The position numbers and the translations under genes are program-made. This document shows, piece after piece, positions 9,390 through 63,639 of a stretch of 64,000 bases of DNA (the first letter of the stretch is position 1; every line of letters begins with the position of its first letter). Origin of the DNA: Erysipelotrichaceae bacterium (GTDB lineage Bacteria; Bacillota_I; Bacilli_A; Acholeplasmatales; Anaeroplasmataceae); assembly GCA_015059145.1 (NCBI GenBank), contig SVAZ01000006.1, positions 2,268 through 66,267 on the forward strand, read 5' to 3'. The notes beneath the pieces were generated by a model that did no database searches, was not told the origin of the DNA, and saw nothing but the letters and a program-made list of their open reading frames with translations.

Positions 9390-9737
9390 TTATATTTTCA
9401 TAATTTCATCCTTATTAAATTTATTAGAAATAGAATCCTTTAAATCATTTAAATCATTAGTTAAAAGCTCATCAAGCTGTCTTTCTAATTTAAAGTATTC
9501 TTTTACCTCTTCTTTTGAATATAGCTCAGATTTAGCCTCACTAAATTCCTTTTGAATAGAGATTACATCATATTGACTAGGATATTGTCTAGCCTCTATA
9601 TAACGTGCCTCCCTGTTCTTAAGCCTAACAATAAGGCTAGAATACTTAGAGTCTATAATTTTCTTTAATTCGATTAATCTTTTAAATTCATTAGTGGAAC
9701 TTAAGTTGTTTACATATTCAATCGCTAGATCCTCCAT
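9390..9737 (-). CDS. YlbF/RicF-like regulator
   Basis: Helical 115 aa with LYSKEEVKEYFKLERQLDELL pattern; ylbD-ylbE-ylbF order as in Bacillus. Confidence 0.7.
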   Translation of the reverse strand: MEDLAIEYVNNLSSTNEFKRLIELKKIIDSKYSSLIVRLKNREARYIEARQYPSQYDVISIQKEFSEAKSELYSKEEVKEYFKLERQLDELLTNDLNDLKDSISNKFNKDEIMKI

Positions 9738-9792
9738 ATGACCCTCCTAAATATTCTATATAAATTATACTTTTAAATAAAAAAATTTTCAA

Positions 9793-10008
9793 TTATTTAA
9801 TAAGACTTGCTAAAGAATAAATCATATTAAATTTGTTTTTAAATCCTTCAAGCTTATCATAACCTCTTATTTTAAGGCTAGCCTTAGCCTCAGCTAAAAA
9901 AGCATTAAAATAAGAGGGCTCATAATATAATATCTTGTACCATCTTGGATGATACCTTAAATACATTAACAAATCCAAATGCTCATAAAGATAGCCCATA
10001 TAATTCAT
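9793..10008 (-). CDS. ylbE: YlbE-like sporulation protein
   Basis: LLMYLRYHPRWYKILYYEP matches the YlbE F/YxRxxPxWY pattern; start overlaps the ylbD stop. Confidence 0.75.
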   Translation of the reverse strand: MNYMGYLYEHLDLLMYLRYHPRWYKILYYEPSYFNAFLAEAKASLKIRGYDKLEGFKNKFNMIYSLASLIK

Positions 10009-10391
10009 TAATACCACTCATCAAATCTTTTATCAAACAGTGGATCACCTGTTGATTTTTTTGCTAAAGCTTGCGTTGATGCTCCCGCACCAAATGAACC
10101 AATAAGCTCTAAAACCTTTTGAATGCTTGTAACAGTCTTAGTAACCTGATCTGGATTTATCTTCTTAACATATCCCATAATATTCTTAATCAAATCCTCA
10201 GTAGATGAATCCTTTTTCTTTACAGGCTCCTTTACCTCTACTTCCTCTTTTTCATCTTCAAAAGCCTCTTCACCTAATAGAACATAATCCTCATACAGCT
10301 CCTGCCATGTTCTTTTTTTGGATAAGACCTCTTGCTTTAATAAAGGATGTCTTTTAATAAATTCCTTAAATTCATCTAGTTTAGCACTCAT
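10008..10391 (-). CDS. ylbD: YlbD-like spore coat protein
   Basis: FKEFIKRHPLL...KRTWQELYEDYVLLGE N-terminal signature; start ATG 10391 behind AGGAG. Confidence 0.8.
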   Translation of the reverse strand: MSAKLDEFKEFIKRHPLLKQEVLSKKRTWQELYEDYVLLGEEAFEDEKEEVEVKEPVKKKDSSTEDLIKNIMGYVKKINPDQVTKTVTSIQKVLELIGSFGAGASTQALAKKSTGDPLFDKRFDEWY

Positions 10392-10407
10392 AAATATCAA
10401 GCTCCTA

Positions 10408-11883
10408 CTATATTTTATGATTTATTTTAGAGTTTGACACTCTTAAAAAGGCAATTAATAAAATATAAGCTAATATAAATATTATAATAAAGCCTATCAT
10501 ACCTACTATATCAGGATATTCAAGTAATAAGGATATCCTAAATATCGTAGCAGCAAGACCAGATATGATAGCTATAAAAATTGACGATATTATAGATTTA
10601 AAATTTTTAAAAAGAATATTTATTTTCGATTTGTTTAATATAAAATACGAAACGACTAAACAAATACCTATAGCTATTAGGGTAGCCATAATAGCTCCTC
10701 GATATGAATAACGTGGAACTAGTAAATAATTTAGAACAATTTTGGCAAGCATTCCTATAAATGTAGAAATGACGACATAATTAAATTTATTTACCCCTTG
10801 CGATATTCCTATCATAACCTTATAAAAGCCTATAAAAAAAATAAGTATTGAAATATCTGATAAAACTATATACACGGAATCATTATTATAAAAAAAGGTA
10901 TATAGCTCATAGGAATATATCTTGTAAAGCATGACTATAGGAATTAACAAATAAATCATAATAGTAGTTAGCCTAGTGGCAAGACGCTTAGCTTCATCTA
11001 ATTTATTATTAGTGCATAATGCATTAACCTTAGGATTAATCGCACCACCTACACTTTGAGCTAAAACTATCGGAATAAATATAAGCCTAATGGTTTCAAA
11101 CATATACGCTGTATATATATGACTTTCAATACCTAATGAGGAAAGAGTAATCGAATCTATAAGCTGATAAAATGTAAAAAATAGAGTTACAATTCCAAAG
11201 GGTATAGCTGTATTTAAAATAGCTGTTATAGCCTTGAATTTTATTTTAGGCTTAAAATAATCTCTTACTACATAAAAAAATAAAAATGCTAAGGCTAGGC
11301 TATATGATATAAAATTACATATAAAAATCTTAGTAATTGTAGTATTATCAATATTCTTAGATATATATAAATATAATAATATCCTTGCTATATTTTCTAA
11401 TAATATAGCTATTGCTGATGGTAGCATTTTTTGATAGCCCTGAATATATCCCTTATAAAAGCTTGTTAATGGATATATAAATAATGATAATGAGGCTATC
11501 CTCAAATGATTTAATATAATTGTATACTCCTCATTAGTATATCCATTATATAGTGAAGCTCCTAATATTTTCTCATTAAAAAAATTTAATAATAAGTAAA
11601 ATATTACTCCTAACACTAAAGAGAATACAGAACCAGTCTTTAACAAATATCTTTTCTTATCATCAACTTCTAATCTTGATATACACTTAGATACACCTGG
11701 AATCAATCCAAATGCAGACAAATCTAAAAACAAGGAAAAGGGAATATATGCATAGGTATAAAGATGTAATCCTATAGGCTTCAAATCCTGTGCAAGCCTA
11801 AATATAAAGATTAAAGATAATATCTTTCCTCCAACCTGACCAAACCCTAATATCAACGCTCCTAATAATAATTTATTCTTCAT
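10408..11883 (-). CDS. SpoVB/MurJ-family (MOP) flippase
   Basis: Multi-TM; FYKGYIQGYQKMLPSAIAILLENIAR; GAIMAT; heads the ylbDEF unit. Confidence 0.8.
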   Translation of the reverse strand: MKNKLLLGALILGFGQVGGKILSLIFIFRLAQDLKPIGLHLYTYAYIPFSLFLDLSAFGLIPGVSKCISRLEVDDKKRYLLKTGSVFSLVLGVIFYLLLNFFNEKILGASLYNGYTNEEYTIILNHLRIASLSLFIYPLTSFYKGYIQGYQKMLPSAIAILLENIARILLYLYISKNIDNTTITKIFICNFISYSLALAFLFFYVVRDYFKPKIKFKAITAILNTAIPFGIVTLFFTFYQLIDSITLSSLGIESHIYTAYMFETIRLIFIPIVLAQSVGGAINPKVNALCTNNKLDEAKRLATRLTTIMIYLLIPIVMLYKIYSYELYTFFYNNDSVYIVLSDISILIFFIGFYKVMIGISQGVNKFNYVVISTFIGMLAKIVLNYLLVPRYSYRGAIMATLIAIGICLVVSYFILNKSKINILFKNFKSIISSIFIAIISGLAATIFRISLLLEYPDIVGMIGFIIIFILAYILLIAFLRVSNSKINHKI

Positions 11884-11907
11884 CCTAACACCCTACATAG
11901 TATTTGT

Positions 11908-11935
11908 ATAATATGCCTCAAATATACATATTTAT
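11908..11935 (-). promoter_or_regulatory. Putative sigmaE promoter of the spoVB-like/ylbDEF unit
   Basis: Minus strand ATA-N17-CATATTAT, fits B. subtilis sigmaE ATa-N16-18-cATAcanT. Confidence 0.55.
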
Positions 11936-11954
11936 CCACTTATCATCATACTAT
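11926..11954 (+). promoter_or_regulatory. Putative sigmaE promoter of the 59-aa ORF
   Basis: ACATATT-N14-CATACTAT, near-consensus sigmaE, 4 nt before the GGGTGA RBS. Confidence 0.65.
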
Positions 11955-11968
11955 TAGTGGGTGATGTT

Positions 11969-12148
11969 ATGTTTAACAAATTCAATAAAAATAATAACAA
12001 TACAAATTATGATTATTACGAAAACATGCAGCTAAATAGAATCTTCTATGAGCTTGAGGATATAAATAGAAAGCTTAGGAATTTAAATAATAGGCTACAT
12101 CGTGTTGAAGGCTTTTTAGGATTAACAGTAGACGACAACAAGGAATAG
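11969..12148 (+). CDS. Small Asn-rich coiled-coil protein, probable sporulation protein
   Basis: MFNKFNKNNNN...LEDINRKLRNLNNRLHRVEGFLG; GGGTGA RBS favours ATG 11969; sigmaE-like promoter. Confidence 0.7.
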   Translation: MFNKFNKNNNNTNYDYYENMQLNRIFYELEDINRKLRNLNNRLHRVEGFLGLTVDDNKE

Positions 12149-12206
12149 GCGTTTATACTAGCTTTATTGCATCAAGCTGCATAAAGTAATATAGGAGGTG
12201 ACCCGT

Positions 12207-12362
12207 ATGTATTATCAAAATCCAGGCTATAATTATGGATATGGTTGCTGCATGCCTCAATATAATACTTGCTGCAATAACAACAGAGGTTCAAAAAATG
12301 GTTATGCACTTATCCTTGTATTATTTATTCTTCTTGTAATTATCGGAGCTGCTAGATGGTAA
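12207..12362 (+). CDS. YjcZ/SscA-family small sporulation membrane protein (51 aa, absent from ORF track)
   Basis: MYYQNPGYNYGYGCCMPQYNTCCNNNRGSKNGYALILVLFILLVIIGAARW; strong AGGAGGTG RBS; ALILVLFILLVIIG is the family motif. Confidence 0.88.
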   Translation: MYYQNPGYNYGYGCCMPQYNTCCNNNRGSKNGYALILVLFILLVIIGAARW

Positions 12363-12402
12363 TTTGTAAAATATTGTGATATAATACCCTCAGGTGATTT
12401 AA

Positions 12403-13005
12403 ATGTATTTATCAAAGGATATTGTAAAAGAAGGAAATCAAATATTAAAGAACATATCTACTAGAGTAAATCTACCACTATCTAGTGATGATTTAGAATG
12501 TGCAAAAGGATTATATGAATATGTAATAGTTTCAGCAATCGATGAGCTAGTAAAGAAATATGGCATTAGACCTGGAGTAGGAATTGCTGCACCACAGGTA
12601 GGAATTAACAAAAGAATGTTTGCCATAAACTGTACTGACTTCTTAGATGAAAAACAAACTAAGTATGCATATCTATTTATAAATCCAACTATTCTTTCTA
12701 AAAGCAAGGAAATGGTTTATTTACCAGGTGGAGAGGGCTGTCTATCAGTAGATAGACCTACAGATAATCTAGTAACACCTAGACATTTTCAAATAGTGAT
12801 TAAATCAGCAATATATGACTTCCAAACAAATAAAATTAAAAATATAAAGATGACATTAACTGGATATCCTGCTATAGTATTCCAGCATGAATATGATCAT
12901 CTAGATGGTATTCTATATACTGACAAAATGTACTCACTAAAGGATATTACTTGTGATCCTTTATATACAATAGATGAAGATGAGGATGAAGAAATAGATG
13001 AATAA
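12403..13005 (+). CDS. def: Peptide deformylase
   Basis: GVGIAAPQVG, EGCLS, QHEYDHLDG. Confidence 0.97.
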   Translation: MYLSKDIVKEGNQILKNISTRVNLPLSSDDLECAKGLYEYVIVSAIDELVKKYGIRPGVGIAAPQVGINKRMFAINCTDFLDEKQTKYAYLFINPTILSKSKEMVYLPGGEGCLSVDRPTDNLVTPRHFQIVIKSAIYDFQTNKIKNIKMTLTGYPAIVFQHEYDHLDGILYTDKMYSLKDITCDPLYTIDEDEDEEIDE

Positions 13006-13064
13006 GGAGTGAAGAAATTCACTTCTTTTTTTCATAAAAAAAGCTAATCATTTTGATTAGCCTT

Positions 13065-14327
13065 TTAATCCATCATTAATTTTATTATTTCCTTATCTGT
13101 CTCAAGCATACCTAGAGAAGCTAGCTTACCAACATTATGAATGGTGTTTTCAACACCCTTTTTAACAATGCCATCTCCACCCTTAAATTGATTGCCATTA
13201 ACATACATATGATACCCTAAAATACCAGCATCTACAGCAAGTGCAATTTTTGCAGCACATGATGCCTTAGCTCCATCACAAATAACGCCAGATTCAATAG
13301 CTAGTGCATTTACAAGTGTATGACAAATTTCTTTGAAGCCACCACCATGCAAATAAGCAATCGCCGCTCCTGCAGCACAGCCAGCCGCAATAGCTCCACA
13401 ATATGCAGAAAGCCTACCAATATCAGTCTTAATATGAGTAGTTAATAGATTTGATAATGCTAGTGCTCTATAAAGAGCTTCCTCAGAGACCTTAAGCTCT
13501 TGTGCATATACTATAACTGGTATAGAACAAGTCATACCCTGATTACCACTACCACTATTAATAACAACTGGCAAATTACATCCATTCATTCTAGCATCAC
13601 TTCCAGCTGCCGCATAGGCTTTAGCTTTTGTTTTAATAGAGTTTCCTTCATTATTTAATATTGTCTTACCAATATTTGCGCCATATGGCTTATTTAAGCC
13701 TTCCTCAGCTATTTTCATGTTGAGATCAATTTGAGACTGTAAAACATCCTTAATTTTATTAACATCTACACTTTGTGCAAATTCATATATACCCTCTACA
13801 CTAAGAATATCTCGATTAGTTAACTCACTATTTTTAATGCCCGTGATTTTCTTTTCAAGAATAACATTATTATTAGCCTTAATTAAAACCACATTAGTAT
13901 GATAATCAGCTATTCTACATTCATATAATCGTCCATTAGAATAGGCCTTAATATGAATATCAAAAATATAATCACTATCAGATAATATTACTTTTATTAT
14001 ATTTTTATTTAAAAGCTCCTTGCATTTTTCTATATCATTATCATTAACCTGTGATATACACTCTAGCTCTAAATCACTATTACCTGCCACTAAGCCAACT
14101 GCACAGGCTGCCTCAATACCTCTTAATCCATTTGTATTAGGCACTACTACAGATTTTACGTTCTTAATAATATTTCCTGAAACATACACATCAATTTTTT
14201 CAAAAGAGCTACCAATTATTGTTTTGAGAATAGATGCTGCATATGCAATCGCAATCGGCTCTGTACAGCCCATTGCTTTTTTTAATTCTTCATTAAGTAT
14301 CTTAATATATTCATTTTCATATTTCAT
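13065..14327 (-). CDS. L-cysteine desulfidase / serine dehydratase alpha-like (YhaM/CyuA family)
   Basis: AMGCTEPIA, KNVKSVVVP, AAAGSDARMNG, SGSGNQG, GRLSAYCG, CDGAKASCA. Confidence 0.88.
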   Translation of the reverse strand: MKYENEYIKILNEELKKAMGCTEPIAIAYAASILKTIIGSSFEKIDVYVSGNIIKNVKSVVVPNTNGLRGIEAACAVGLVAGNSDLELECISQVNDNDIEKCKELLNKNIIKVILSDSDYIFDIHIKAYSNGRLYECRIADYHTNVVLIKANNNVILEKKITGIKNSELTNRDILSVEGIYEFAQSVDVNKIKDVLQSQIDLNMKIAEEGLNKPYGANIGKTILNNEGNSIKTKAKAYAAAGSDARMNGCNLPVVINSGSGNQGMTCSIPVIVYAQELKVSEEALYRALALSNLLTTHIKTDIGRLSAYCGAIAAGCAAGAAIAYLHGGGFKEICHTLVNALAIESGVICDGAKASCAAKIALAVDAGILGYHMYVNGNQFKGGDGIVKKGVENTIHNVGKLASLGMLETDKEIIKLMMD

Positions 14328-14330
14328 AAA

Positions 14331-15029
14331 CTACCCTCTTAGCTTATACATTATTATTCCACCAGCAACACCTACATTTAATGATTCAGTATTGTCCATA
14401 GGAATATAAATGTTTTCCTTAATTATTTCCTTAACCTCTGGTGATATTCCATTACCCTCATTACCTAAAACAATTCCTAGCTTAAAGCTGTTTTTAACAT
14501 TATCAAGCTCTTCTCCGTTTATAACATCAGTACCATAAATTTTATAGTCCTTCAATGTTGGAATAAATTCATTTAAATTAGCATTAATGAAATTAATCTT
14601 AAATATAGCACCCTGTGATGATCTAATAACCTTATCGTTATATATATCAACACATCCATTACCTAGAATAATAGTCTTATATCCAAATGCACAAGCACTT
14701 CTCATTAATGCACCCATATTACCCGGATCCTGTATAGCATCTAAAATAAGGATATGATCTGATAGATCACTCTTTTCTATCATTTTACATAATCCAATTT
14801 CTGTAACAACAGTATCTGTATTTGAAATCTTCTGCATAACTGCTTTAGATACCTGAGTATATCCATCCTTATAATCCAAGCTAAAGGCTTCCTCTAGTAA
14901 GCCAAGCTTTCTAGCCTCATCTACTAAATGCTTCCCTTCAATTAAAAATCTCTTTTCCTTTTTACGGTACTTAGCAGTATTAAGCTTAGATAGATATTTT
15001 ACCTTTTGATTTTCTAAAGATTCAATCAT
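14331..15029 (-). CDS. TrmH/SpoU-family RNA methyltransferase
   Basis: IQDPGNMGALMRSA, VIRSSQGA, LGNEGNG, ESLNV; start ATG 15029. Confidence 0.93.
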   Translation of the reverse strand: MIESLENQKVKYLSKLNTAKYRKKEKRFLIEGKHLVDEARKLGLLEEAFSLDYKDGYTQVSKAVMQKISNTDTVVTEIGLCKMIEKSDLSDHILILDAIQDPGNMGALMRSACAFGYKTIILGNGCVDIYNDKVIRSSQGAIFKINFINANLNEFIPTLKDYKIYGTDVINGEELDNVKNSFKLGIVLGNEGNGISPEVKEIIKENIYIPMDNTESLNVGVAGGIIMYKLRG

Positions 15030-15125
15030 GTAATCACCACGCTTTATAAATATAATATCATAAATCAATAGATAAAAAAAGAATAAAGGCTCTACAATTA
15101 AGCATTGTAGAGCCTATACTATAAA

Positions 15126-15425
15126 TTAGTTAGATTGTTGTTTACCTTTATTGAAAAGCTTTTTAGTCATTTCGCCACCGATACGACCATTTTCTTCAGC
15201 TGTTGCATTCTTACCTGGAGTAATACCTAATTCATTTGCAACCTCTTGCTTTAAAGCTTCAGTGTCTGTAGTTTGCTTAGCACGTTCAACTGCTTGCTTA
15301 GTAATGTTTCCACCAATTGAACCATTCTCTTGACTAGAGTTTGACTTTGAACCCTTGTTCATAGTTGATGAATTTGATGTTGAAGACATTGCAGATGATG
15401 ATTGGGAGTTCTTCTTATTTGCCAT
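15126..15425 (-). CDS. alpha/beta-type small acid-soluble spore protein, extended
   Basis: LKQEVANELGI...ENGRIGGEMTKKL; follows thiI as sspA does in B. subtilis; AAGGAGGTG RBS before ATG 15425. Confidence 0.9.
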   Translation of the reverse strand: MANKKNSQSSSAMSSTSNSSTMNKGSKSNSSQENGSIGGNITKQAVERAKQTTDTEALKQEVANELGITPGKNATAEENGRIGGEMTKKLFNKGKQQSN

Positions 15426-15482
15426 AATTTCACCTCCTTGCAATATTTATGTTTTCCCAAAGAGATGAATTTATACTTTAAT

Positions 15483-16715
15483 TTACAAATTTTTTAAAAC
15501 GTCTCTAACCTCAAGACCTAGGAACGTTAAATCTAAATCACTATTCATATCAATAGTTATACTATTAGTATTCTCTACAGCCTCATCAACCATAGGCTCA
15601 AAATCAAATGCTTTTTCATATTGAATTGCTTTATCAAGCTTTGGTGATGTAGCAGGTGCCTTAGGAACATATACAGTACAGCAATCCTCAAAAGGCTTTA
15701 TAGATAGCTCGAAGCAATCAATACGCTGAGAAATCTTAATTATGTCCTGCTTATCATAAGTACATAACGGACGAAGAATTGGATAATTAGTAACTGCATT
15801 AATAGTATGCATGCTACCTAATGTTTGGCTTGCAACCTGACCAACAGATTCACCATTAATTAAGCACAAGCATTGATTTCTTTCAGCTAGCTTTGTAGCT
15901 ATTCTATACATCATTCTTCTCATAATAGTAATATTATAGCTTTCAGGAATATTATCTAGTAAAGCCATATGAAGCTCCTTAAATGGAACCATATGAACAT
16001 TGATCTTATTGTTAGGTGCATACTTAGACATCTTCTTAACTAAATCAATTACCTTTTGTGCTGATTCGATTGAGGTAAGTGGAGTAGACTCAAAATGAAC
16101 ACATTCTATCTCAACACCTTGCTTCATTGCTAAGAATCCTGCAACAGGAGAATCTATACCTCCTGATAGCATTAATAATCCCTTACCTGCAACACCTACA
16201 GGGAATCCTCCTAATGCTCTAATTTCAGTATTAAATAAATAGCAGGCATCTCTTCTTAATTCTATATTTAATGTAACCTCTGGATTATGGACATCAACTC
16301 TTAATTCCTTGTGATTAGAAAGGACATAACCAGCAACATGCTTTGTAACCTCCATTGATTGCATTGGATAATTTTTATTTGCACGCTTTGTTGTAACCTT
16401 AAATGTAGTTGGCTTATTGACTACCTCCTTCATCAGCTCAAGTGAAGTCTTCTTAATCTCATTAAGATCATTATCACACTTTACAACTAATGAATAAGAT
16501 GAAATACCAGATACTAAATTAAGCCTATCAATTACCTTATTAACATCTTCTTCTAAAAGATGAATAAATATTCTATCATGCTGATATTCAATTTCAATAT
16601 TTAGGCCTTCCATTTTTACAGCCATTAGCTTATATAGCTTTTGAAGGAATACCTTTTGATTTTTACCCTTTAATGTTAAATCTCCAAATCTTACTAATAT
16701 TTGATTATATAGCAT
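15483..16715 (-). CDS. thiI: tRNA 4-thiouridine synthase
   Basis: THUMP region plus LLMLSGGIDSPVA PP-loop, GESVGQVASQT, EDCC. Confidence 0.97.
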   Translation of the reverse strand: MLYNQILVRFGDLTLKGKNQKVFLQKLYKLMAVKMEGLNIEIEYQHDRIFIHLLEEDVNKVIDRLNLVSGISSYSLVVKCDNDLNEIKKTSLELMKEVVNKPTTFKVTTKRANKNYPMQSMEVTKHVAGYVLSNHKELRVDVHNPEVTLNIELRRDACYLFNTEIRALGGFPVGVAGKGLLMLSGGIDSPVAGFLAMKQGVEIECVHFESTPLTSIESAQKVIDLVKKMSKYAPNNKINVHMVPFKELHMALLDNIPESYNITIMRRMMYRIATKLAERNQCLCLINGESVGQVASQTLGSMHTINAVTNYPILRPLCTYDKQDIIKISQRIDCFELSIKPFEDCCTVYVPKAPATSPKLDKAIQYEKAFDFEPMVDEAVENTNSITIDMNSDLDLTFLGLEVRDVLKNL

Positions 16716-16832
16716 AGAATATCAACTCCTAATAATAATTTAACCGCCTTATTATAACACAATAAATTATAAAAAGAAATAAACCTTTCTAAATCTTAAA
16801 TATAATTATATAATAAGCATGAGGTGTTTAAA

Positions 16833-17297
16833 ATGAATAAAACAAATTATAATTCTATAATAAGTGAATTGCCACATTTAATCTGTGATTTAGAATATGA
16901 GGTTACTATATTAAGTAACGCTTCTGCATTACTTAATGAGCATTTGGACATTATTAACTGGGTTGGCTTTTATCTTTTAAAGGACAATAAATTAATATTA
17001 GGGCCATTCCAAGGCAAGCCTGCGTGTACAACAATTCCTTTAAACAAAGGCGTTTGTGGTGCATGTGCTACAAATGAAGCTACTATCATTGTAGATAATG
17101 TTCATGAGTTTAAAGGACATATCGCATGTGATAGTGCATCGAATAGTGAGATATGTATTCCAATTTTTAAGGATAATAAATTCTATGGATTATTAGATAT
17201 TGATTCACCTATAATAAATAGGTTTAATAACGAGGACAAAACCTATTTAGAGGCTGTTGTAAAAATAATTGAAAAAGCACTAATTTCGGCAAAATAA
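16833..17297 (+). CDS. msrC: GAF-domain free methionine-R-sulfoxide reductase (MsrC/YtsP)
   Basis: INWVGFY, LGPFQGKPAC, GVCG, GHIACDSASNSEIC, LDIDS. Confidence 0.9.
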   Translation: MNKTNYNSIISELPHLICDLEYEVTILSNASALLNEHLDIINWVGFYLLKDNKLILGPFQGKPACTTIPLNKGVCGACATNEATIIVDNVHEFKGHIACDSASNSEICIPIFKDNKFYGLLDIDSPIINRFNNEDKTYLEAVVKIIEKALISAK

Positions 17298-17300
17298 TAA

Positions 17301-17329
17301 TTGACATTGCTTATCCAATTTGTTATAAT
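17301..17329 (+). promoter_or_regulatory. sigmaA promoter of rpsD
   Basis: Perfect TTGACA-N17-TATAAT. Confidence 0.92.
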
Positions 17330-17334
17330 AACAC

Positions 17335-17500
17335 AGCGTGGGTAAAAAGCAGCAGCTTAAATACCTTAGTAAATATCTTAAAGCACAATAGTTAATTAGT
17401 AACCTCCGCTGCTTGTTGGTGAAAGTTCAATTTAAGATATCCTAAGGCTATAAGCCGAACATTTACTCCCATAAAAAATATATTATAGGAGGACATACAA
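17335..17500 (+). promoter_or_regulatory. S4 (rpsD) autoregulatory leader
   Basis: About 165-nt 5' UTR with GCAGC...GTAAC...GCTGC elements as in the Bacillus rpsD leader. Confidence 0.75.
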
Positions 17501-18100
17501 ATGTCAAGATTCACAGGATCAAGCTGGAAGGTATCTCGTCGTTTAGGTTATTCTATCAGTGAAACTGGTAAGGAATTAATCAAGAGAAAATACGCTCCAG
17601 GTCAACATGGTGCTAAGCGCACTAAATTAAAGGAATATGGTTTACAGTTACAAGAAAAGCAAAAAGTAAGATTTACTTATGGTGTTTCTGAAAAGCAATT
17701 CGTTAAGACTTTCGCTGAAGCTGGTAAGTTACCAGGAAAGCATGGTGTTAACTTCTTAAAAGTTTTAGAATGCCGTTTAGACAACCTAGTATATCGTTTA
17801 GGTTTTGCTTCTACTAGAGGACAAGCTCGTCAATTAGTTAACCATGGTCACATCGTAGTAGATGGAAAGAAGTTAGACATTCCATCATACCGTGTTAAGC
17901 CAGGTCAAACTATTGCTATGAAGGAAACTTCAAAGAACTTAGCAGTTGTTAAGGCTGCTTTAGAGGCTAAGCTTGCTCGTCCTGAATATGTAGCATTTGA
18001 TGACAAGAAGATGGTTGGTACATTCGTTAGAATGCCAGAAAGAAATGAATTCTTACCTGAAATCAACGAACAATTAATTGTCGAATTCTACAACAGATAA
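17501..18100 (+). CDS. rpsD: 30S ribosomal protein S4
   Basis: [46 protein letters not shown]. Confidence 0.99.
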
Positions 18101-18180
18101 TATGTAAAGTAAGGCTTGCGTTATGCAGGCCTTTTTTATTTCTTCTTCTACAATAAAAGGAGACTCAAATGAGTCTCCTT

Positions 18181-19296
18181 TTAACTATTTATAAGCTTAT
18201 TAATCTTTTCTAGCTGCTCAGGTATATTTATATGCTGAGGACATTCCTTCATACATTTCTTACACCTCTTACAGTTATTAGGAAGCATAGTTTCCTCTAG
18301 CTTAGATATTCTATCCTTAAATTGAACTAAATCCTTATTAATGCCATAAGTGTTAAAAATACTAAATAGCTTCGGAATAGCAACACCAAATGGACAAGGT
18401 AAGCAATATCTACAGCCAGTACAAGGAATAAAATCATTTCCTAGAATTTCCTTTTTAGCACTATTAATAATAGACATTTCCTCTTCATTCAATTCCTCAT
18501 AATTTGTAAATGTATTCATGTTATCCTTTAGCTGGTCCATATTAGACATACCAGATAGGATAACCTTTATATTAGGGAATTTAGCAACAAAGCGTAAAGC
18601 CCATGATGCATTACTACTATTAGGTCTATAGCTCTTAAAAAGCTTTTCTGCAGGCTCACATACATTCGCAAGCATTCCACCTCTTACAGGCTCCATTACT
18701 ACAACTGAGATATCTCTTTTAGTTAATTCATCATATTGCTTCACGCAATCCTGAATGTCAACATCTAAATAATTGAATTGAATTTGAGCAAAATCCCAAG
18801 GTAATTCATCAGCTATCGGAATAATATTTTGAGGAGCATCATGATAAGAGAACCCTAAGAATCTAATCTTACCTTCAGCCTTCATTTCAGAAAGGAAGCT
18901 ATATACATCTAATTTTTTATATATCTCATGTCTTTCTAAATTCATTGCATGGCATAAATAAAAATCAAAATATTCAACCTGACATTTTTCTAGCTGCTCA
19001 AAGAAAATTCTTTTCGCATCCTCTAATGTTTCACATTCCCAAATAGGCATTTTATCTGCTAAGCAAAAGGTACTTCTATCATATTTCTTTAATATTTTAC
19101 CAATAACAATTTCGCTTTGCTTATTGTGATAAGGATATGCTGTATCAAAATAATTAATTCCATTCTTATATGCATAATCAATCATTTCCTCTGTTAATTT
19201 ATAATCAATCTCGTCAGACCCTTCTAGCTTAGGTAGCCTCATACAGCCCATTCCTAATAATGATACACTTTGATTTCTAATGCTTCTCTTTTCCAT
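18181..19296 (-). CDS. Aldo/keto reductase with C-terminal 4Fe-4S domain
   Basis: LGMGCMRLP, NYFDTAYPY, VMEPVRGG, CTGCRYCLPCP and CKRCKKCMKECP. Confidence 0.92.
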   Translation of the reverse strand: MEKRSIRNQSVSLLGMGCMRLPKLEGSDEIDYKLTEEMIDYAYKNGINYFDTAYPYHNKQSEIVIGKILKKYDRSTFCLADKMPIWECETLEDAKRIFFEQLEKCQVEYFDFYLCHAMNLERHEIYKKLDVYSFLSEMKAEGKIRFLGFSYHDAPQNIIPIADELPWDFAQIQFNYLDVDIQDCVKQYDELTKRDISVVVMEPVRGGMLANVCEPAEKLFKSYRPNSSNASWALRFVAKFPNIKVILSGMSNMDQLKDNMNTFTNYEELNEEEMSIINSAKKEILGNDFIPCTGCRYCLPCPFGVAIPKLFSIFNTYGINKDLVQFKDRISKLEETMLPNNCKRCKKCMKECPQHINIPEQLEKINKLINS

Positions 19297-19359
19297 AGTA
19301 CCTCCAACATATTTAAATTATCAAACTATATATACGAATTTAATCTTTATCTTATTATA

Positions 19360-20010
19360 TCATAATGTATTTAATAAAGTAAGACTTCCATAATAAATAC
19401 TACTAGCTAGCTTATACTGATAAGCCTTATCCATTAATAATTTTAGCTCTAAAGGATTTGACATAAAGCCACACTCCACCAAGCAGGCTGGTATTGATGC
19501 CTTATTAAGTAAATAGATATTATTTCTTTTTTGAACTATTCTATCAGTATTATTTAAGTATATTTTAATCGATTCCTGAATTCCTTCTGCTAGGGCTTTA
19601 TTATTTGGATTTGCCGTACTATAAAAAACCTGTGCTCCGCTATATTTAGAATTACTATATTTATTTTGGTGTATTGATATACATAAAAAGTAGCTACCGC
19701 TATTAATCATTTTAAGCCTTTTATTCATATCTGTTCGCTTAACAAACTTACCATCACACAAATCATTTTCATCTTCTCTAGTTAGGTCTGCTATAAAACC
19801 ATTATCCTCAAATATAGACTTTAGCTCATATGCAATTTCTAAATTCAAATCATCCTCATTAATATTACCAACTGATGCACCAGCATCCATTCCCCCATGA
19901 CCAGCATCAATTATTACTCTCTTTTCTATATTAGCTATAGATTTATTTGAGGTTATTAATAACGAAAATAAACAAATAATTAAAGCTATCGCTATCAATG
20001 CTTTTTTCAT
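19360..20010 (-). CDS. cwlD: N-acetylmuramoyl-L-alanine amidase, CwlD-like
   Basis: IIDAGHGGMDAG, LTREDENDL, ISIHQN, GAQVFY, LVECGFMSNPLE; single N-terminal TM like CwlD. Confidence 0.8.
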   Translation of the reverse strand: MKKALIAIALIICLFSLLITSNKSIANIEKRVIIDAGHGGMDAGASVGNINEDDLNLEIAYELKSIFEDNGFIADLTREDENDLCDGKFVKRTDMNKRLKMINSGSYFLCISIHQNKYSNSKYSGAQVFYSTANPNNKALAEGIQESIKIYLNNTDRIVQKRNNIYLLNKASIPACLVECGFMSNPLELKLLMDKAYQYKLASSIYYGSLTLLNTL

Positions 20011-20063
20011 AATCTCACCTAATTAAGAATATGAAATAAAAAAAGAAAAATGCCTGAGTATAA

Positions 20064-24400: not shown

Positions 24401-25393
24401 TTACTTCTTATATGCATTTGAAATTAAGGCTGCATCACATAACGCAATAGCAAGGCATGCCTCTAAAACTACCATAGCTCTTAATATAATAGCTGCGTCA
24501 TGTCTACCCTCAATTATAAGCTCCTCAACCCTTCCATTTTTAAAATTGAAGGTATCCTGAGCTACACCAATTGAAGGCGTTGGCTTAACAAATACTCTAA
24601 CATCTATATCATTACCATTAGAAATGCCACCATTTATACCACCATTATTATTAGTCTTAGTAGTGCCGCTTTCATTAATTATACAATCATTAAAGCTACT
24701 TCCATTTAATTTAGCACCTTCAAAGCCTATACCAAATTCAACACCCTTTACTCCACCAATAGAGAATAATAAGTGTGAAATTGTAGATTCTAAAGAATCA
24801 AAATATGGCTCGCCTAATCCTACTGGAACATTTTTAGCCTTAAGTGAAACAACACCACCAACACTATCATGTGCTTCAATTACCTTATCTAATATCTCAT
24901 TAAATTTAGTAGTATCAGTGCATCCACCTAAATTAGCAAGCTTAGTTTCAAATTGTACCCCATCAAGCATCTTCTTTGCCACAACACCTGCAGCAACTAT
25001 ACCTAGTGTTAAACGTGCAGAGAAATGTCCACCACCACGATAATCATTATAGCCATTATATTTTTCATGAGCTGTATAATCTGAATGTGATGGTCTTGGA
25101 TGATTCACTAAATTTGAATAATCCTTGCTTTTAGTATTAGTATTTAAAAATCTAAGTAATACAGGGGCACCTGTTGTTAAATCATTAAATACACCAGATT
25201 CAATAATAATTTCATCAGCCTCTATTCTTGGAGTTGTACCCTTACCACCAGATTTTCTTCTTATTAAATCAGCCTTAAAATCCTCACTAGTAAGATGCAT
25301 ACCTGGCTTAACACCATCTAATAATATACCTACACCAGCACCATGGCTTTCTCCAAAAATACTTATTCTAAATAATCTTCCGAAGCTATTCAT
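24401..25393 (-). CDS. aroC: Chorismate synthase
   Basis: FGESHG, RPSHSD, RGGGHFSAR, GGINGGISNG, KPTPSI, GRHD. Confidence 0.97.
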   Translation of the reverse strand: MNSFGRLFRISIFGESHGAGVGILLDGVKPGMHLTSEDFKADLIRRKSGGKGTTPRIEADEIIIESGVFNDLTTGAPVLLRFLNTNTKSKDYSNLVNHPRPSHSDYTAHEKYNGYNDYRGGGHFSARLTLGIVAAGVVAKKMLDGVQFETKLANLGGCTDTTKFNEILDKVIEAHDSVGGVVSLKAKNVPVGLGEPYFDSLESTISHLLFSIGGVKGVEFGIGFEGAKLNGSSFNDCIINESGTTKTNNNGGINGGISNGNDIDVRVFVKPTPSIGVAQDTFNFKNGRVEELIIEGRHDAAIILRAMVVLEACLAIALCDAALISNAYKK

Positions 25394-26157
25394 AACATCA
25401 TCTCAATTCTTTTTAATAAATCTTTTACCTCATTGCTATAGCATTTATCCTGCCATATTTCTTCAGCCTTTATTGCTTGTCCTACAAGCATAAATAATCC
25501 ATTCATATTAGATTTAGCATCAGCTAAAAGCTTAGTAACTCTAGGATTAAAAATAATATCAACTACATTTTTAGCTTTCTTTGTGATCTTTTCATCAAGT
25601 GGTGATGCATCAACATTAGGATACATCCCAACTGGAGTTGTATTAACAATTAAATCAATATTTCTTTTAGCTAATTCATCATATGTAATTGTATTATCAT
25701 TTTTTGGATTTCTAGATACATATAAAGCATTCCCTCCTAAATCAATTAACGCTTTATATACAGCAAGTGATGCTCCACCTGTACCTAAAATATAACAATC
25801 CTTATTTTTAACCTCAACCTTGTAATAAACTAATTCATTATAAAATCCATAATAATCAGTATTAAAACCAACAATCTTACCATTGATGCTAGCAACAGTA
25901 TTTACACTACCTATGGCCTTCGCCTCAGGAGAAATTTCATCTAAATACTTGATAACCTCAACCTTATAAGGAATTGTTACATTAAACCCTTGAAATTCGC
26001 CCATTCTTAGCTTTTTTATTGCATCAGGAAGCTTATCCCTTTCTACCTCTAAAAGCTCGTATGTGGCTTCAATTCCCATATCCTTAAATATTTCCTTATG
26101 AATCATAGGAGAATAGCTATGAGATAGCTTTTCACCTAATAAAGCATACCTTTTCAT
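25390..26157 (-). CDS. aroE: Shikimate dehydrogenase
   Basis: HSYSPMIH, GFNVTIPYK, GSVNT, NTDYYG, GTGGA. Confidence 0.96.
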   Translation of the reverse strand: MKRYALLGEKLSHSYSPMIHKEIFKDMGIEATYELLEVERDKLPDAIKKLRMGEFQGFNVTIPYKVEVIKYLDEISPEAKAIGSVNTVASINGKIVGFNTDYYGFYNELVYYKVEVKNKDCYILGTGGASLAVYKALIDLGGNALYVSRNPKNDNTITYDELAKRNIDLIVNTTPVGMYPNVDASPLDEKITKKAKNVVDIIFNPRVTKLLADAKSNMNGLFMLVGQAIKAEEIWQDKCYSNEVKDLLKRIEMML

Positions 26158-26429
26158 TACTTGATCAAATCCTTTTGATAATCCTTAGAGGCTGTTAGCA
26201 TTCCTTCAATAAATGTTAAATAATATTCCTCTAATTCCTTATTATTTAAAATCTTTAAATTCTTTTCCTTTAATAAATTCTCTCTTTTTTGATCTAAAAT
26301 AGGAAGGTTGTTGTCGCTTTTATATTCTGCAACCATTTTTGCAGCTTCCATTCTTTTAATAAAAAGCTCAATCATTTTTGCATCAACATCATTAATAATT
26401 TCTCTTGCTAATTCTAGCTTAGTCTTCAT
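26157..26429 (-). CDS. Chorismate mutase type II, stand-alone
   Basis: LAREIINDVDAKMIELFIKR...ILDQKRE; start ATG 26429 overlaps the aroA stop. Confidence 0.9.
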   Translation of the reverse strand: MKTKLELAREIINDVDAKMIELFIKRMEAAKMVAEYKSDNNLPILDQKRENLLKEKNLKILNNKELEEYYLTFIEGMLTASKDYQKDLIK

Positions 26430-27684
26430 AAGTAACATTACCTCCAATAGACTCAAATACTTCCCAGAAATTAGGATAAGACTTAGATACACATTCTGCA
26501 TTTATAATCTTAATATCTCCGGTTGACTTAAGAGATGCCATCGCAATAGCCATAGCTACTCTATGATCATTATGTGAATCAATAACACCACCAGTAAGCT
26601 TATCTACTCCTGTTATAATCATTCCATCAGGATTTTCCTCTATCTTAGCACCTAGCTTAGCTAGCTCATCCTTCATACAAGTGATTCTATCACATTCCTT
26701 AATTCTTAATCTAGCTGCATTTATAAATTCAGTAACACCACTAGACAAAGCCGCTAAAACAGTAAGAGCAGGTCCTAAATCTGGTGATTGTGCAAAATCA
26801 ATTACACAGCCCTTAGTTTGAACCGGATAAGCCTTTAGCTTATCGTCCTCAAACGTAATTTTACCACCTAAATCTAAAACATCCTGAATAATTTTCTTAT
26901 CACCCTGATGAGAATCCTTATTCATTGCATGAAGAGTAATATCAGCACCTAATGTGTCAGCCACTAAAAAGAATGCTGATTGTGAGAAATCACCTTCAAT
27001 TGTATAATCAGCAGGCTCATAGCTTTGATTACCCTTTATTATAAAGCTCTTATAATCAACATTTTCTATTACAATACCAAATTTTTTTAACATATCTAAA
27101 GTCAAATCAACATATCCCTTAGATTCTAAATTTGTAGTAATATTTATAACACTATCACCATTTAATAATGGCAGTGCATATAAAAGACCAGTTATAAATT
27201 GTGAAGAAATATCTCCTCTAATATTAAACTGTCCTGGCCTTAAGCCACCATTAACCTTTAAAGGTAAATAATCCTCACCTCTAGAATACTCTATTCCCTG
27301 ATTATCAAAGATTTCAAAGAAAGTATCTAATGGTCTTTTACATAAATGATTTTTTCCAGTGAAGGTAATAGGCTCATTTACTGCTAAAGCAATAGGAATC
27401 ATAAAACGAATTGTAGATCCAGATTCATTTGCGTCTATTACATCATCTACTCTTTTAACATCACTACCAATAATCTCTAAGTGATCCTTATATTCAGTTA
27501 TATTAGCACCACAGGCTCTCATTGCACCAATTGTAGCTTTTATGTCCTTAGAATATAAAACATTAGAAATAATGCTTTTACCTTTAGCTAAGGAAGCAGC
27601 AATAATTGCACGATGTGATAAGCTTTTTGATGGTGGAATAATTACATCCCCACTTAGCTTACCAGGCTTAATTATAACATTCAT
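26419..27684 (-). CDS. aroA: EPSP synthase
   Basis: PPSKSLSHR, ESGSTIR, ISSQF, RIKECDR, DHRVAM, KSYP. Confidence 0.97.
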   Translation of the reverse strand: MNVIIKPGKLSGDVIIPPSKSLSHRAIIAASLAKGKSIISNVLYSKDIKATIGAMRACGANITEYKDHLEIIGSDVKRVDDVIDANESGSTIRFMIPIALAVNEPITFTGKNHLCKRPLDTFFEIFDNQGIEYSRGEDYLPLKVNGGLRPGQFNIRGDISSQFITGLLYALPLLNGDSVINITTNLESKGYVDLTLDMLKKFGIVIENVDYKSFIIKGNQSYEPADYTIEGDFSQSAFFLVADTLGADITLHAMNKDSHQGDKKIIQDVLDLGGKITFEDDKLKAYPVQTKGCVIDFAQSPDLGPALTVLAALSSGVTEFINAARLRIKECDRITCMKDELAKLGAKIEENPDGMIITGVDKLTGGVIDSHNDHRVAMAIAMASLKSTGDIKIINAECVSKSYPNFWEVFESIGGNVTYED

Positions 27685-28709
27685 TAAAATCTCTCCTTGA
27701 TTTCCTCTTCTGTAAGCTTATAGATAACACACTTCCCAAGCTCAGTTAGGAAAATAAAATTAATTGTTCCAGCAATATTCTTTTTATCAAACAATATGTC
27801 CTTTAAATATTCCTTATAATCATAATGCTCGATTGGTAAATTATAAAGCTTTAATACCTTTAAAATATCATTATAGCATGACTTATCAGTAACACCTAAA
27901 TCAACACCCATATTTATTGCCATAAGCATACCAATAGCTACTGCTTCTCCATGCTTATAGCCATATTTAAGCTCTATTGCATGACCAAATGTATGTCCAA
28001 AATTTAAAGTCATTCTTTCCTTTAAATCAAATTCATCAAGCTCAACAACTCTCTTTTTAACAGTTAAGCTTTCATAAATAATATCCTCTGTAATCTTAGG
28101 CTTATTATCAAGCATCTTTAAAAGCTTATAATTTCCTATAGCTCCATGCTTAATTAACTCACCCATACCATTATTAAATTCTCTTTCATCTAATGTATCT
28201 AATGTTTTAGGATCAATTAAAACCATAGAAGGCTGCTTAAATGCCCCCAATATATTTTTTCTACCAGCAAAATCAATACCAGTTTTACCACCAATAGATG
28301 AATCCATTTGACTTAATAATGATGTAGGTATACCAACATAAGGAATACCTCTATAAAGCGTTGCAGCAACAAAGCCACATAAATCACCAATTACACCACC
28401 GCCTAAGGCAAGTAATAAATGGTTTCTTTTAATGCCCTTTTCAATTAGCTGCTCACATACTGATGCATAGGTAGATATGCTTTTAGATTCCTCTCCATTT
28501 GGAATAACAACATAATCAACATCAAAATCATTTCTTAAAGAATCTAAAGCCTGATTTAAATATAGACCCTCTACCTTATCATCAGTAAGAATATATATTT
28601 TCTTATTTTTATAAATCTCTTTAATATAAAAAGAAAGATGGGAAAGTAATCCATCTTCAATTATAATTTTATAAGCACTGTTGCTTAGTTTTATTTCTAG
28701 CTGTCTCAC
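27684..28709 (-). CDS. aroB: 3-dehydroquinate synthase
   Basis: LGGGVIGD, DSSIGGKTG, ELIKH, LNFGHTFGHAIE, HGEAV. Confidence 0.97.
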   Translation of the reverse strand: MRQLEIKLSNSAYKIIIEDGLLSHLSFYIKEIYKNKKIYILTDDKVEGLYLNQALDSLRNDFDVDYVVIPNGEESKSISTYASVCEQLIEKGIKRNHLLLALGGGVIGDLCGFVAATLYRGIPYVGIPTSLLSQMDSSIGGKTGIDFAGRKNILGAFKQPSMVLIDPKTLDTLDEREFNNGMGELIKHGAIGNYKLLKMLDNKPKITEDIIYESLTVKKRVVELDEFDLKERMTLNFGHTFGHAIELKYGYKHGEAVAIGMLMAINMGVDLGVTDKSCYNDILKVLKLYNLPIEHYDYKEYLKDILFDKKNIAGTINFIFLTELGKCVIYKLTEEEIKERF

Positions 28710-29536
28710 TTTTCCATCTCTTTTCTAATTTTAGTTGATGATATAAACAATTCCTTTAATGCTCCCTTATCATTTGATATTAAAGCGTCCTTAAGCCTTG
28801 AAAGCTCAAGCTCAAAGGAATTTATATGCTTAACTAAATAATCCTTATTTTCTAAAAATAACTCACTCCATAAATTTTCATTAATCATCGCAATTCTTGT
28901 TAGGTCACGATAAGAATCTCCAATGAAATTCTTTGTGTCCGAATCGTGATCGCTATTAACTAATGAAACTGCAATAGCATGAGTTAATTGACTAGTAAAT
29001 CCAATCATTTCGTCATGGCGCTCATAATCCATTAACGAAATTCTAAAAAAACCCAAATCAACACCTAAACCTTTAATAACATCTACAGCATTTGCTGGAG
29101 TACTATCAGATGGAGTAATTAAAAAATTAGCCCCTTCAAAAATACATTCCTTAGAGTACTCAATCCCTATTTTTTCTCTACCAGCCATCGGATGGTGAGA
29201 GCAATATACTGCAGGGTATGCAAGCCTTTCAGCCTCTTTAATAAATGATGACTTAACGCCACAAACGTCAGTAATAATTTGACTTGGCTTGAAGTATTTA
29301 TTATTATCCTTTAAAAAGCTTAAAATAGCCTGTGGATAAATAGATAATACAATGATATCTACGATAGGAATAAAATCCATTGCATCCACGCTTCCATCAA
29401 CTATATAATTATTATCCCTAGCATAATTTATAGAATTAATATTTGTGTCGCAGCCATATACCTCATGGCCCTTATTGGATAATCTATATGCATAAGCCCC
29501 ACCAATGAGACCTAAGCCAACTACCAATACCTTCAT
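28706..29536 (-). CDS. tyrA: Prephenate dehydrogenase
   Basis: VGLGLIGG, TDVCGVK, HPMAGRE, HDEMIGFTSQLTH, RDLTRIA. Confidence 0.95.
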   Translation of the reverse strand: MKVLVVGLGLIGGAYAYRLSNKGHEVYGCDTNINSINYARDNNYIVDGSVDAMDFIPIVDIIVLSIYPQAILSFLKDNNKYFKPSQIITDVCGVKSSFIKEAERLAYPAVYCSHHPMAGREKIGIEYSKECIFEGANFLITPSDSTPANAVDVIKGLGVDLGFFRISLMDYERHDEMIGFTSQLTHAIAVSLVNSDHDSDTKNFIGDSYRDLTRIAMINENLWSELFLENKDYLVKHINSFELELSRLKDALISNDKGALKELFISSTKIRKEMEK

Positions 29537-29538
29537 AA

Positions 29539-45296: not shown

Positions 45297-45299
45297 AAA

Positions 45300-45334
45300 A
45301 AATCACACTCCGTTTTATTGTATGAGTGTGATTT
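45300..45334 (-). terminator. Terminator-like hairpin overlapping the dapA RBS
   Basis: Minus strand AAATCACACTC-N13-GAGTGTGATTT, U6 tract overlapping the stem base, then ATG. Confidence 0.75.
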
Positions 45335-45342
45335 AATATTTG

Positions 45343-52577: not shown

Positions 52578-52654
52578 TGGCGCATCCAAGAGGACTCGAA
52601 CCCCTAACCTTTTGATCCGTAGTCAAACGATCTATCCAATTGATCTATGGATGC
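52578..52654 (-). tRNA. tRNA-Arg(ACG)
   Basis: GCATCCA acceptor, TTTGA-CTACGGA-TCAAA anticodon arm, GGTTCGAG T-loop, encoded CCA; 77 nt. Confidence 0.97.
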
Positions 52655-52686
52655 ATGTATATTAAGTTGACGGTTAAAAAAAATAA

Positions 52687-52762
52687 TGGCGGTCCGGACG
52701 GGACTTGAACCCGCGATCTCCAGTGTGACAGACTAGCATGTTAACCACTACACCACCGGACC
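52687..52762 (-). tRNA. tRNA-Asp(GTC)
   Basis: GGTCCGG acceptor, CTGTCAC anticodon loop, GGTTCAAG T-loop, encoded CCA; 76 nt. Confidence 0.97.
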
Positions 52763-63632: not shown

Positions 63633-63639
63633 GAAATAT

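Follow-up and report, generated by a model that had tools for sequence, protein, structure and literature searches.

A reduced endospore gene set without sigF, probably maintained by selection, in an Anaeroplasmataceae-labelled lineage

We analyzed a 64-kb stretch of DNA (the window; G000:C3:2268-66267, where G000 is the source genome) that carries a group of sporulation-type genes. Our results suggest that this region is probably part of a strongly reduced, selection-maintained endospore programme in a lineage labelled Anaeroplasmataceae, and that G000 probably sporulates. Spo0A and three sporulation sigma factors are encoded in the genome, short promoter elements are conserved upstream of the sporulation genes of related species, and dN/dS is 0.06-0.36 across the gene set tested (dS saturated). 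Cultured Anaeroplasmataceae are textbook wall-less non-sporulators, and the family sits in Mollicutes (NCBI taxonomy). An initial annotation of this DNA had read these genes as a functioning sporulation programme in a relative of the mollicutes, and the proposal is supported as far as sequence reaches.

That sporulation genes occur in Anaeroplasmataceae is already published. As the initial annotation had anticipated for uncultured relatives in general, Field, Bowerman and Hugenholtz (2024, Microb Genom, PMC10868615) reported that a majority of Anaeroplasmataceae genomes have sporulation genes, including spo0A. New here are the predicted sigF-less cascade of three sigma factors, promoter-level evidence for function, and the regulatory and phyletic coupling of peptidoglycan genes to sporulation genes.

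Sporulation genes in the window

Open reading frames (ORFs) of the window were listed and scored with Pfam and NCBIfam profile scans. The genes discussed below are as follows (window coordinates, strand).

9390-9737, minus: YlbF/RicF-like, 115 aa (Pfam Com_YlbF 22.5 bits, under the cut-off of 23.9)
9793-10017, minus: YlbE-like (Pfam YlbE 27.0 bits, cut-off 27.0)
10008-10391, minus: YlbD, putative coat protein family, 127 aa from ATG (Pfam YlbD_coat 71 bits, cut-off 27)
10408-11883, minus: MOP-superfamily MurJ/SpoVB-like flippase, 491 aa (TIGR02900 66 bits, cut-off 372; MurJ 40 bits)
11969-12148, plus: 59-aa coiled-coil ORF, here orf59 (no Pfam or NCBIfam family match)
12207-12362, plus: YjcZ-family small sporulation membrane protein, 51 aa (Pfam YjcZ_2 40.6 bits, cut-off 21; TIGR01732 38.4 bits, cut-off 21.35)
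15126-15425, minus: divergent alpha/beta-type SASP, 99 aa (Pfam SASP, PF00269, 60.8 bits in two stretches, cut-off 22)
15483-16715, minus: thiI, housekeeping anchor of the SASP adjacency (present in 25/26 relatives)
19360-20010, minus: CwlD-like N-acetylmuramoyl-L-alanine amidase (TIGR02883 182 bits, top match, below the equivalog cut-off of 221.5)
44427-45296, minus: dapA (TIGR00674 256 bits)

The initial annotation had called YlbD, YlbE, YjcZ and an alpha/beta-type SASP, and all four reach their Pfam cut-offs, YlbE exactly. Its CwlD call needs softer wording: TIGR02883 scores far above every other amidase model and still falls short of the equivalog cut-off, so we describe the protein as CwlD-like. 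Equivalog identity of the flippase with SpoVB is ruled out by its TIGR02900 score, and we regard the protein as a generic MOP/MurJ-type flippase. For YlbF, the ORF and a weak family match stand; the score is under the cut-off, and a homologue (51% identity) is kept in the non-sporulating relative G005. The YlbF call is weak, and YlbF is no sporulation marker.

Several of these genes are conserved as a linked group. YlbD shares 81% amino-acid identity with its orthologue in the congener G007, and in sister families (G017, G019 and G023) the ylbE, ylbD and flippase orthologues form a linked set. The 59-aa ORF is a real gene, because it is conserved in G007 (88% identity) and because its sister-family homologues (47-53% identity) are linked to the same cluster. 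The flippase (dN/dS 0.22) is confined to genomes with peptidoglycan and sporulation genes (G002, G007, G008, G017, G019, G021 and G023), and the CwlD-like protein is restricted in the same way. This CwlD-like protein also turns up in ENA ERZ27247052, SRR7031497 and JGI 3300018475. A PdaA-like protein, the presumed partner of CwlD, is encoded just left of the window (G000:C3:1064-1789; 257 bits, cut-off 298), and PdaA is restricted to sporulating relatives.

The SASP gene lies 57 nt downstream of thiI and has a dN/dS of 0.13. This adjacency is kept in every sporulating relative examined, and a SASP is missing there in nine non-sporulating relatives. The protein carries the ENG(S/R)IGG DNA-binding motif twice, and a Ser/Asn-rich N-terminal extension holds the second ENGSIGG copy. 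SASPs of the G000 genus are atypical, and those of the sister families look canonical.

Sporulation inventory of the source genome

The G000 assembly (1.43 Mb, 34 contigs, 31% GC) has 94.4% completeness and 0.25% contamination. The initial annotation had proposed searching the genome for spo0A and the sporulation sigma factors, and we found Spo0A (TIGR02875 324 bits, cut-off 200), SigE, a SigG-like factor and SigK. Together with SigA, these three sigma factors are the only sigma-70 ORFs of the genome; sigF is genuinely missing. SigE (NF006158, 293 bits) and SigG (NF006071, 357 bits) are best matches that both score under their equivalog cut-offs. SigK reaches 261 bits with NF004471 (cut-off 252), and its gene is on C9. 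A spoIIGA-sigE-sigG operon is on C25. The same proposed search recovered gpr and mur genes and gave no match for SpoIID or SpoIIP.

Other steps of the pathway are also represented. SpoIIGA (53.7 bits), SpoIIR (53.9 bits), SpoVAC (111 bits) and SpoVAD (326 bits) all exceed Pfam gathering scores. SpoIIAB scores 155 bits (cut-off 135), the STAS domain of SpoIIAA 76.7 bits, and the SpoIIE PP2C domain of a 657-aa SpoIIE-like phosphatase 63.5 bits. SpoIVA (475 bits, cut-off 460), Gpr (219 bits, cut-off 120) and CotE (160 bits) are present, as are SpoIIID, YabG, a CotZ-like protein, SpoVIF, YabP and a CwlJ/SleB-type hydrolase (Hydrolase_2). SpoVE-like and SpoVD-like proteins score 407 and 647 bits. 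The sporulation ORFs are intact in at least six congeneric and four sister-family species. The identified sporulation set comprises about 45 genes; if G000 is a true spore-former, this would be among the smallest endospore programmes known.

A 116-aa ORF at G000:C31:6210-6560, 1.5 kb from the full-length gene, is strongly similar to part of the SpoVD-like penicillin-binding protein (PBP; 248 bits) and may be a duplicated fragment or a pseudogene.

Loss of sigF

The operon at G000:C5:3223-5809 reads spoIIAA-spoIIAB-spoVAC-spoVAD and ends with a 119-aa SpoVAE-like ORF, which adjoins spoVAD at the spoVAE position and whose sole identification is 28% similarity to SpoVAC. There is no sigF between spoIIAB and spoVAC, and the four sigma-70 ORFs are all that the 94%-complete assembly encodes. 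We found the same direct succession of spoIIAB and spoVAC in G026 and in a metagenome-assembled genome (MAG) labelled Anaeroplasmataceae. Congeners that are 96-97% complete have no second F/G-type sigma factor.

In more distant genomes the slot after spoIIAB is filled to varying degrees. It holds a 225-aa SigF in a Haloplasmataceae MAG, a 200-aa sigma factor in a Coprobacillus MAG of the Erysipelotrichales, sigma factors of 151-259 aa in two sister families, and a 157-aa remnant in UBA11505. From these graded lengths we conclude that SigF shrank across the wider lineage and was deleted in the G000 genus. All four sporulation sigma factors have been reported in every spore-former (Galperin et al. 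2022, bioRxiv 10.1101/2022.02.25.481979), and a text search of the literature available to us found no report of a natural sigF-less spore-former. If the G000 lineage sporulates, it would be a counter-example to the four-sigma rule for spore-formers.

Mother-cell-type and forespore-type promoters

Promoter elements of the window are listed below (window coordinates, strand).

10412-10419, minus: ylbD -10 box CATAAAAT, mother-cell-type by sequence
11908-11915, minus: flippase-gene box CATATTAT, probably a chance match
11926-11954, plus: orf59 promoter ACATATT-N14-CATACTAT, sigmaE-like; box at 11947-11954
12180-12188, plus: yjcZ box CATAAAGTA, sigmaK-type CATAnnnTA; CATAnnnT part at 12180-12187
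15444-15476, minus: SASP forespore-type promoter GTATAA-N13/14-GG..A..CATAAATA
20026-20033, minus: cwlD -10 box CATATTCT, mother-cell-type, just downstream of a terminator-like hairpin
45317-45324, minus: dapA box CATACAAT, in a hairpin loop; the Shine-Dalgarno sequence is in the 3' arm

CATAnnnT boxes had been annotated at orf59, yjcZ, cwlD, dapA and the flippase gene, and all five lie where they had been placed. The chance rate that had been estimated, about 1% per gene, is right in order of magnitude and slightly low: the measured background is 18-29 boxes per 10-nt bin per 1377 genes (1.3-2.1%), and the bin from -30 to -21 holds 53 (3.8%). We rejected the flippase-gene box as a sporulation promoter, since it is unconserved in G007, G008 and G002. 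The conserved block at that site is TATGTATAAT-like and is held in common with the divergent orf59 promoter.

CATA elements at several other genes are conserved between species. Upstream of orf59, both promoter blocks are kept in 4/4 species within a spacer that has otherwise diverged. CATAAnnTAATA followed by a ribosome-binding site (RBS) is kept upstream of yjcZ in 4/4 species, and the cwlD CATA stands at a fixed distance from the RBS in 4/5. The element is also conserved at spoIVA (8/10 species, another family among them), murD (5/5), murE (5/6), mraY (3/3) and murG (3/5). Although the spacers of orthologous promoters diverge, their discriminating 'CA' keeps its distance from the RBS.

Gene content points the same way. 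Seven mother-cell or cortex genes were identified with hidden Markov models before their promoters were inspected, and all seven have a box between -50 and -12, against a genome-wide rate of about 8.5%. A CATA box and, downstream of it, an RBS precede about 50 genes, most of them orthologues of sigmaE/K-regulon genes of B. subtilis. Among them are spoIIID, cotE, yabG, yabP, spoVIF, cwlD, dapA, ylbD, spoVD and spoVE, along with cotZ-like, cwlJ-like, dacB-like, spmA-like, dpaA-like and dapB-like genes. For mother-cell promoters, CATATTAT and CATATAAT are the canonical -10 elements (Saujet 2013, PMC3789822).

The positional peak of CATAnnnT (53 boxes against about 22 per 10-nt bin) was rejected as stand-alone proof. 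The very short leaders found throughout the G000 genome give ordinary TATAAT boxes the same peak (126-142 per 10-nt bin at 21-40 nt from the start codon, background about 27), and every NNTAnnnT class is enriched 1.3-2 fold there. A TTGACA-like -35 accompanies 13% of the CATA set compared with 31% of other -10-like boxes, and the CATA set shows no TTG signal. No -35 consensus stood out clearly for it against the AT-rich background. By sequence, sigmaA might also use CATAnnnT boxes; in favour of their specificity, the -35 depletion, the 'CA' conservation and the gene content carry weight.

Forespore-type elements were found at three loci. The GTATAA, GG and CATA blocks of the SASP promoter are kept in six species, and a similar motif, GTATA-N15-GGATATGATA, lies upstream of spoIIR. 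In the spacer between sigE and sigG, GCATAA-N17-CATATTA is conserved in a congener; it fits what we take to be the sigmaG-type consensus of B. subtilis. A regular-expression scan for further forespore promoters was too loose and returned mostly sigmaA -10 plus RBS combinations. Signals for Spo0A are present as well: out of 33 0A boxes (TTGTCGAA or its complement TTCGACAA) in the whole genome, three fall in the 50 nt before spo0A (G000:C15:122780-122830), and one upstream of spoIIAA overlaps the promoter region. The conserved promoter motifs, the 0A boxes and the low dN/dS together argue that the sporulation cascade is used.

Taxonomic placement and phyletic pattern

Placement rests on the NCBI title of a related MAG plus RpoB, in a comparison that contained no cultured Anaeroplasma genome. 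The nearest named Spo0A (77% identity) belongs to a MAG titled 'uncultured Anaeroplasmataceae bacterium'. RpoB of G000 is 86% identical to that of the Anaeroplasmataceae-titled MAG, 77-93% to that of same-genus relatives, 67-72% to that of other families of the order, and about 60% to that of the Haloplasmataceae, Coprobacillus and UBA11505 MAGs. In the RpoB tree the Anaeroplasmataceae-titled MAG falls inside the genus clade with 100% support. These data indicate that G000 is an uncultured, small-genome gut bacterium of an Anaeroplasmataceae-labelled lineage (GTDB class Bacilli, Acholeplasmatales-type order), as far as these markers can place it. The initial annotation had inferred a Mollicutes-related lineage, which these data bear out. 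The family is not an ordinary spore-forming one, because 25/39 congeners lack Spo0A and the sampled non-sporulators lack MurG.

Sporulation genes are distributed in an all-or-none manner. Spo0A occurs in 57/106 species genomes family-wide, and among 39 other species of the genus it is present in 13/39 and lacking in 25/39. The same 10 of 26 genomes carry SigG, SpoIVA, MurG, MurE, CwlD, PdaA and the thiI-linked SASP, with few exceptions (no PdaA match in G002, no CwlD or MurE match in the 78%-complete G008). The 16 relatives without sporulation genes also lack MurG and MurE, and none of the 26 genomes has one package alone. Positive species form a paraphyletic grade on the RpoB tree, which requires at least three joint losses.

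Peptidoglycan genes and sporulation-type promoters

G000 departs from the classical picture of a wall-less mollicute without peptidoglycan synthesis genes. It encodes MurA, MurC, MurD, MurE, MurG, MraY, one SEDS protein, one class-B PBP and two GT51 proteins. The sole SEDS protein best matches SpoVE and the sole class-B PBP best matches SpoVD. A phmmer search had suggested that no class-A PBP was present; this was disproved when PF00912 found the two GT51 proteins. Loci outside the window include the following.

G000:C2:24012-28415: murE, mraY and murD
G000:C10:33681: murG
G000:C22:207239: murA
G000:C31:8048: spoVD-like
G000:C2:8778: spoVE-like

At murA, murC, murD, murE, murG, mraY and the spoVE-like and spoVD-like genes, a CATA box is the only recognisable promoter. 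These boxes lie 3-6 nt upstream of the RBS, often straight after a terminator. The dapA leader (window 45297-45345) folds into a hairpin of -15.2 kcal/mol (z = -5.3) followed by a U-run, and the murC leader, beyond the right end of the window (G000:C3:68234-68290), has the same design (z = -5.1). Since the Shine-Dalgarno sequence is in the hairpin arm and the CATA box in the loop, only transcripts that start at the CATA box should be translatable from murC and dapA. MreB was not found anywhere in the order. Mur enzymes are 53-65% identical between species with 93% RpoB identity (MurG 53%, MurE 55%).

One reading of this arrangement goes beyond the endospore programme itself. Peptidoglycan could be essentially a sporulation product, with vegetative cells wall-less or nearly so, as in their mollicute congeners, the mur genes and the SpoVE/SpoVD-like pair under mother-cell sigma factors only and serving to make germ-cell wall and cortex, and SigG in place of SigF in a three-sigma cascade. 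If true, peptidoglycan and sporulation genes would always be lost together because peptidoglycan is made only for the spore. Against a spore-only peptidoglycan stand the two GT51 genes, a murF-like gene and a second carboxypeptidase gene, all without CATA boxes, and the sigmaA-compatible TAnnnT core. We consider this combined reading possible and rather doubtful.

Alternative explanations

Several observations weigh against a selection-maintained endospore programme. In addition to the missing sigF, searches of the 94%-complete G000 gave no match for SpoIID, SpoIIP or SpoIIIAE (SpoIIM, SpoIIQ and SpoIIIAH were not searched). A search for DpaA at E <= 1e-20 found nothing in 25/26 genomes, G000 included, and the DpaA-like protein that was found via the promoter list is a weak match (87 bits, cut-off 261). 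Compared with housekeeping genes, cortex and mur genes evolve faster by a factor of 3-8. Many congeners have lost the entire set, which marks the lineage as prone to loss. CATAnnnT includes the sigmaA core TAnnnT. Finally, the SpoMAG classifier (2025) assigned MAGs of the Acholeplasmatales a sporulation probability of 0% (PMC12536801).

Many of these points would be expected if the genes were remnants of an ancestral pathway that has ceased to yield spores, in an asporogen that still has Spo0A and is heading for the complete loss found in sister species. The four unmatched genes (sigF, spoIID, spoIIP and spoIIIAE), the congeners without Spo0A, the raised dN/dS of cwlD, murG and murE, the SpoMAG score and the existence of Spo0A-positive non-spore-formers (Galperin 2022) all fit such a relic. 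However, over 40 sporulation and cortex genes remain intact and are retained jointly by at least 10 species of three families. Each species has the whole set or none, with no half-decayed genome among those searched. Short promoter elements are conserved inside diverged spacers, and dN/dS is well below 1. A clean sigF-sized deletion that leaves spoIIAA and spoIIAB intact also suggests rewiring rather than decay. We therefore regard a relic as unlikely and favour a programme that selection maintains.

The Spo0A and sigma cascade might instead drive a walled resting cell or cyst, with no true engulfed endospore. The unmatched engulfment and channel genes (SpoIID, SpoIIP and SpoIIIAE), the order-wide lack of an MreB match and the sporulation-type promoters of the peptidoglycan genes are in line with such a repurposed module. 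However, forespore items (SASP, Gpr, SpoVAC/D, SpoIIR and SpoIIAA/AB) are kept, as are coat and cortex items (SpoIVA, CotE, YabP, CwlD and PdaA), and Erysipelotrichales without most spoIIIA genes do form endospores (Galperin 2022). Repurposing seems distinctly improbable.

Contamination of the MAG by Firmicute genes, or a wrong assignment of an ordinary spore-forming family, might be suspected because the assembly has 34 contigs and only the NCBI title of one related MAG to supply a name. Such an error is very improbable: the sporulation genes lie among rpsP, rpsD, thiI, def and aro genes on one 71-kb contig of uniform 31% GC, estimated contamination is minimal (0.25%), the same arrangements recur in independent assemblies, the RpoB tree puts G000 among wall-less, Spo0A-negative species, and the family-wide Spo0A frequency agrees with that of Field et al. 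(2024).

Proposed wiring of the cascade

Under the endospore reading, the cascade could be wired as follows. Spo0A would autoregulate through its three 0A boxes and turn on spoIIAA-spoIIAB(-spoVA) and spoIIGA-sigE-sigG. The sole forespore sigma factor would be SigG-like, produced from the Spo0A-dependent spoIIG operon, where it is co-transcribed with pro-SigE, and from its own GCATAA-N17-CATATTA promoter. SpoIIAB would hold the SigG-like factor until SpoIIE and SpoIIAA release it in the forespore. Once released, it would fill the role of the deleted SigF and drive spoIIR, the SASP gene and gpr through promoters of the GTATA...GG..CATA type.

SpoIIR and SpoIIGA would then activate SigE, with SigK next. 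SigE and SigK would read the CATAnnnT boxes that lie 3-6 nt upstream of the Shine-Dalgarno sequence. Their predicted targets are spoIVA, spoIIID, cotE, yabP, yabG, cwlD, ylbD, yjcZ, orf59, dapA, the dpaA-like gene and most peptidoglycan genes. The products would build cortex and coat, with CwlD and PdaA modifying the cortex and with SASP, Gpr and SpoVAC/D equipping the core. In this scheme engulfment and the feeding tube would proceed without SpoIID, SpoIIP and SpoIIIAE.

Comparison with known systems

The study by Field et al. covers uncultured Anaeroplasmataceae, RF39, RFN20 and ML615J-28, and concerns the same lineage with the same headline; our Spo0A count of 57/106 agrees with it. It reports mur genes in 40-60% of Anaeroplasmataceae genomes and infers multiple independent losses. 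Its evidence is KEGG presence/absence and family averages, and its authors describe what they saw in Anaeroplasmataceae as 'not the main focus'; the portions of its text that were searched mention neither sigF nor promoters. Added here are the sigF deletion, the sigma-specific promoters, the 0A boxes, the all-or-none coupling per species and the mother-cell-type promoters at mur genes.

Spore-forming Erysipelotrichales such as Erysipelatoclostridium ramosum and [Clostridium] innocuum (Galperin 2022) resemble G000 in having a small set without most of the SpoIIIA channel and without many coat and germination genes. They form spores despite this reduction, and dpaAB-type and SASP markers serve as indicators. 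Unlike in the Coprobacillus MAG of that order, the sigma slot after spoIIAB is empty in G000, and SpoIID and SpoIIP have no match.

G000 shares with B. subtilis and Clostridioides difficile (Saujet 2013, PMC3789822) the placement of spoIIAA-spoIIAB beside spoVA, the spoIIGA-sigE-sigG operon, the mother-cell -10 elements CATATTAT and CATATAAT, the 0A boxes at spoIIA and spo0A, and forespore GNATA -35 elements with a G upstream of the -10. Unlike these species, it has three sporulation sigma factors rather than four and no match for SpoIID, SpoIIP or SpoIIIAE. Its leaders are also extremely short, with the box 3-6 nt from the Shine-Dalgarno sequence, and a CATA box is the only recognisable promoter of most mur genes.

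Within one genus, sister species possess the sporulation and peptidoglycan genes either as a complete package or not at all. The genus thus offers a natural experiment on the origin of mollicutes from spore-forming Bacilli. Our findings also bear on the transmission of a common gut lineage via ethanol-resistant spores and on gene-content classifiers, which currently score the order as non-sporulating.

Other features

A leader upstream of an mntP-like gene (putative Mn exporter; G000:C2:26450-26565) is conserved between G000 and G007 and may be a yybP-ykoY-type riboswitch. Ordinary features of the window include a T-box leader and tRNA-Arg and tRNA-Asp genes, at 63465-63640 (minus) and 52578-52762 (minus). 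Positions 24401-30555 hold a complete-looking shikimate/aromatic block (aroF, aroB, aroA, aroE, aroC and a tyrA-like gene), an unusual biosynthetic capacity for a mollicute relative.

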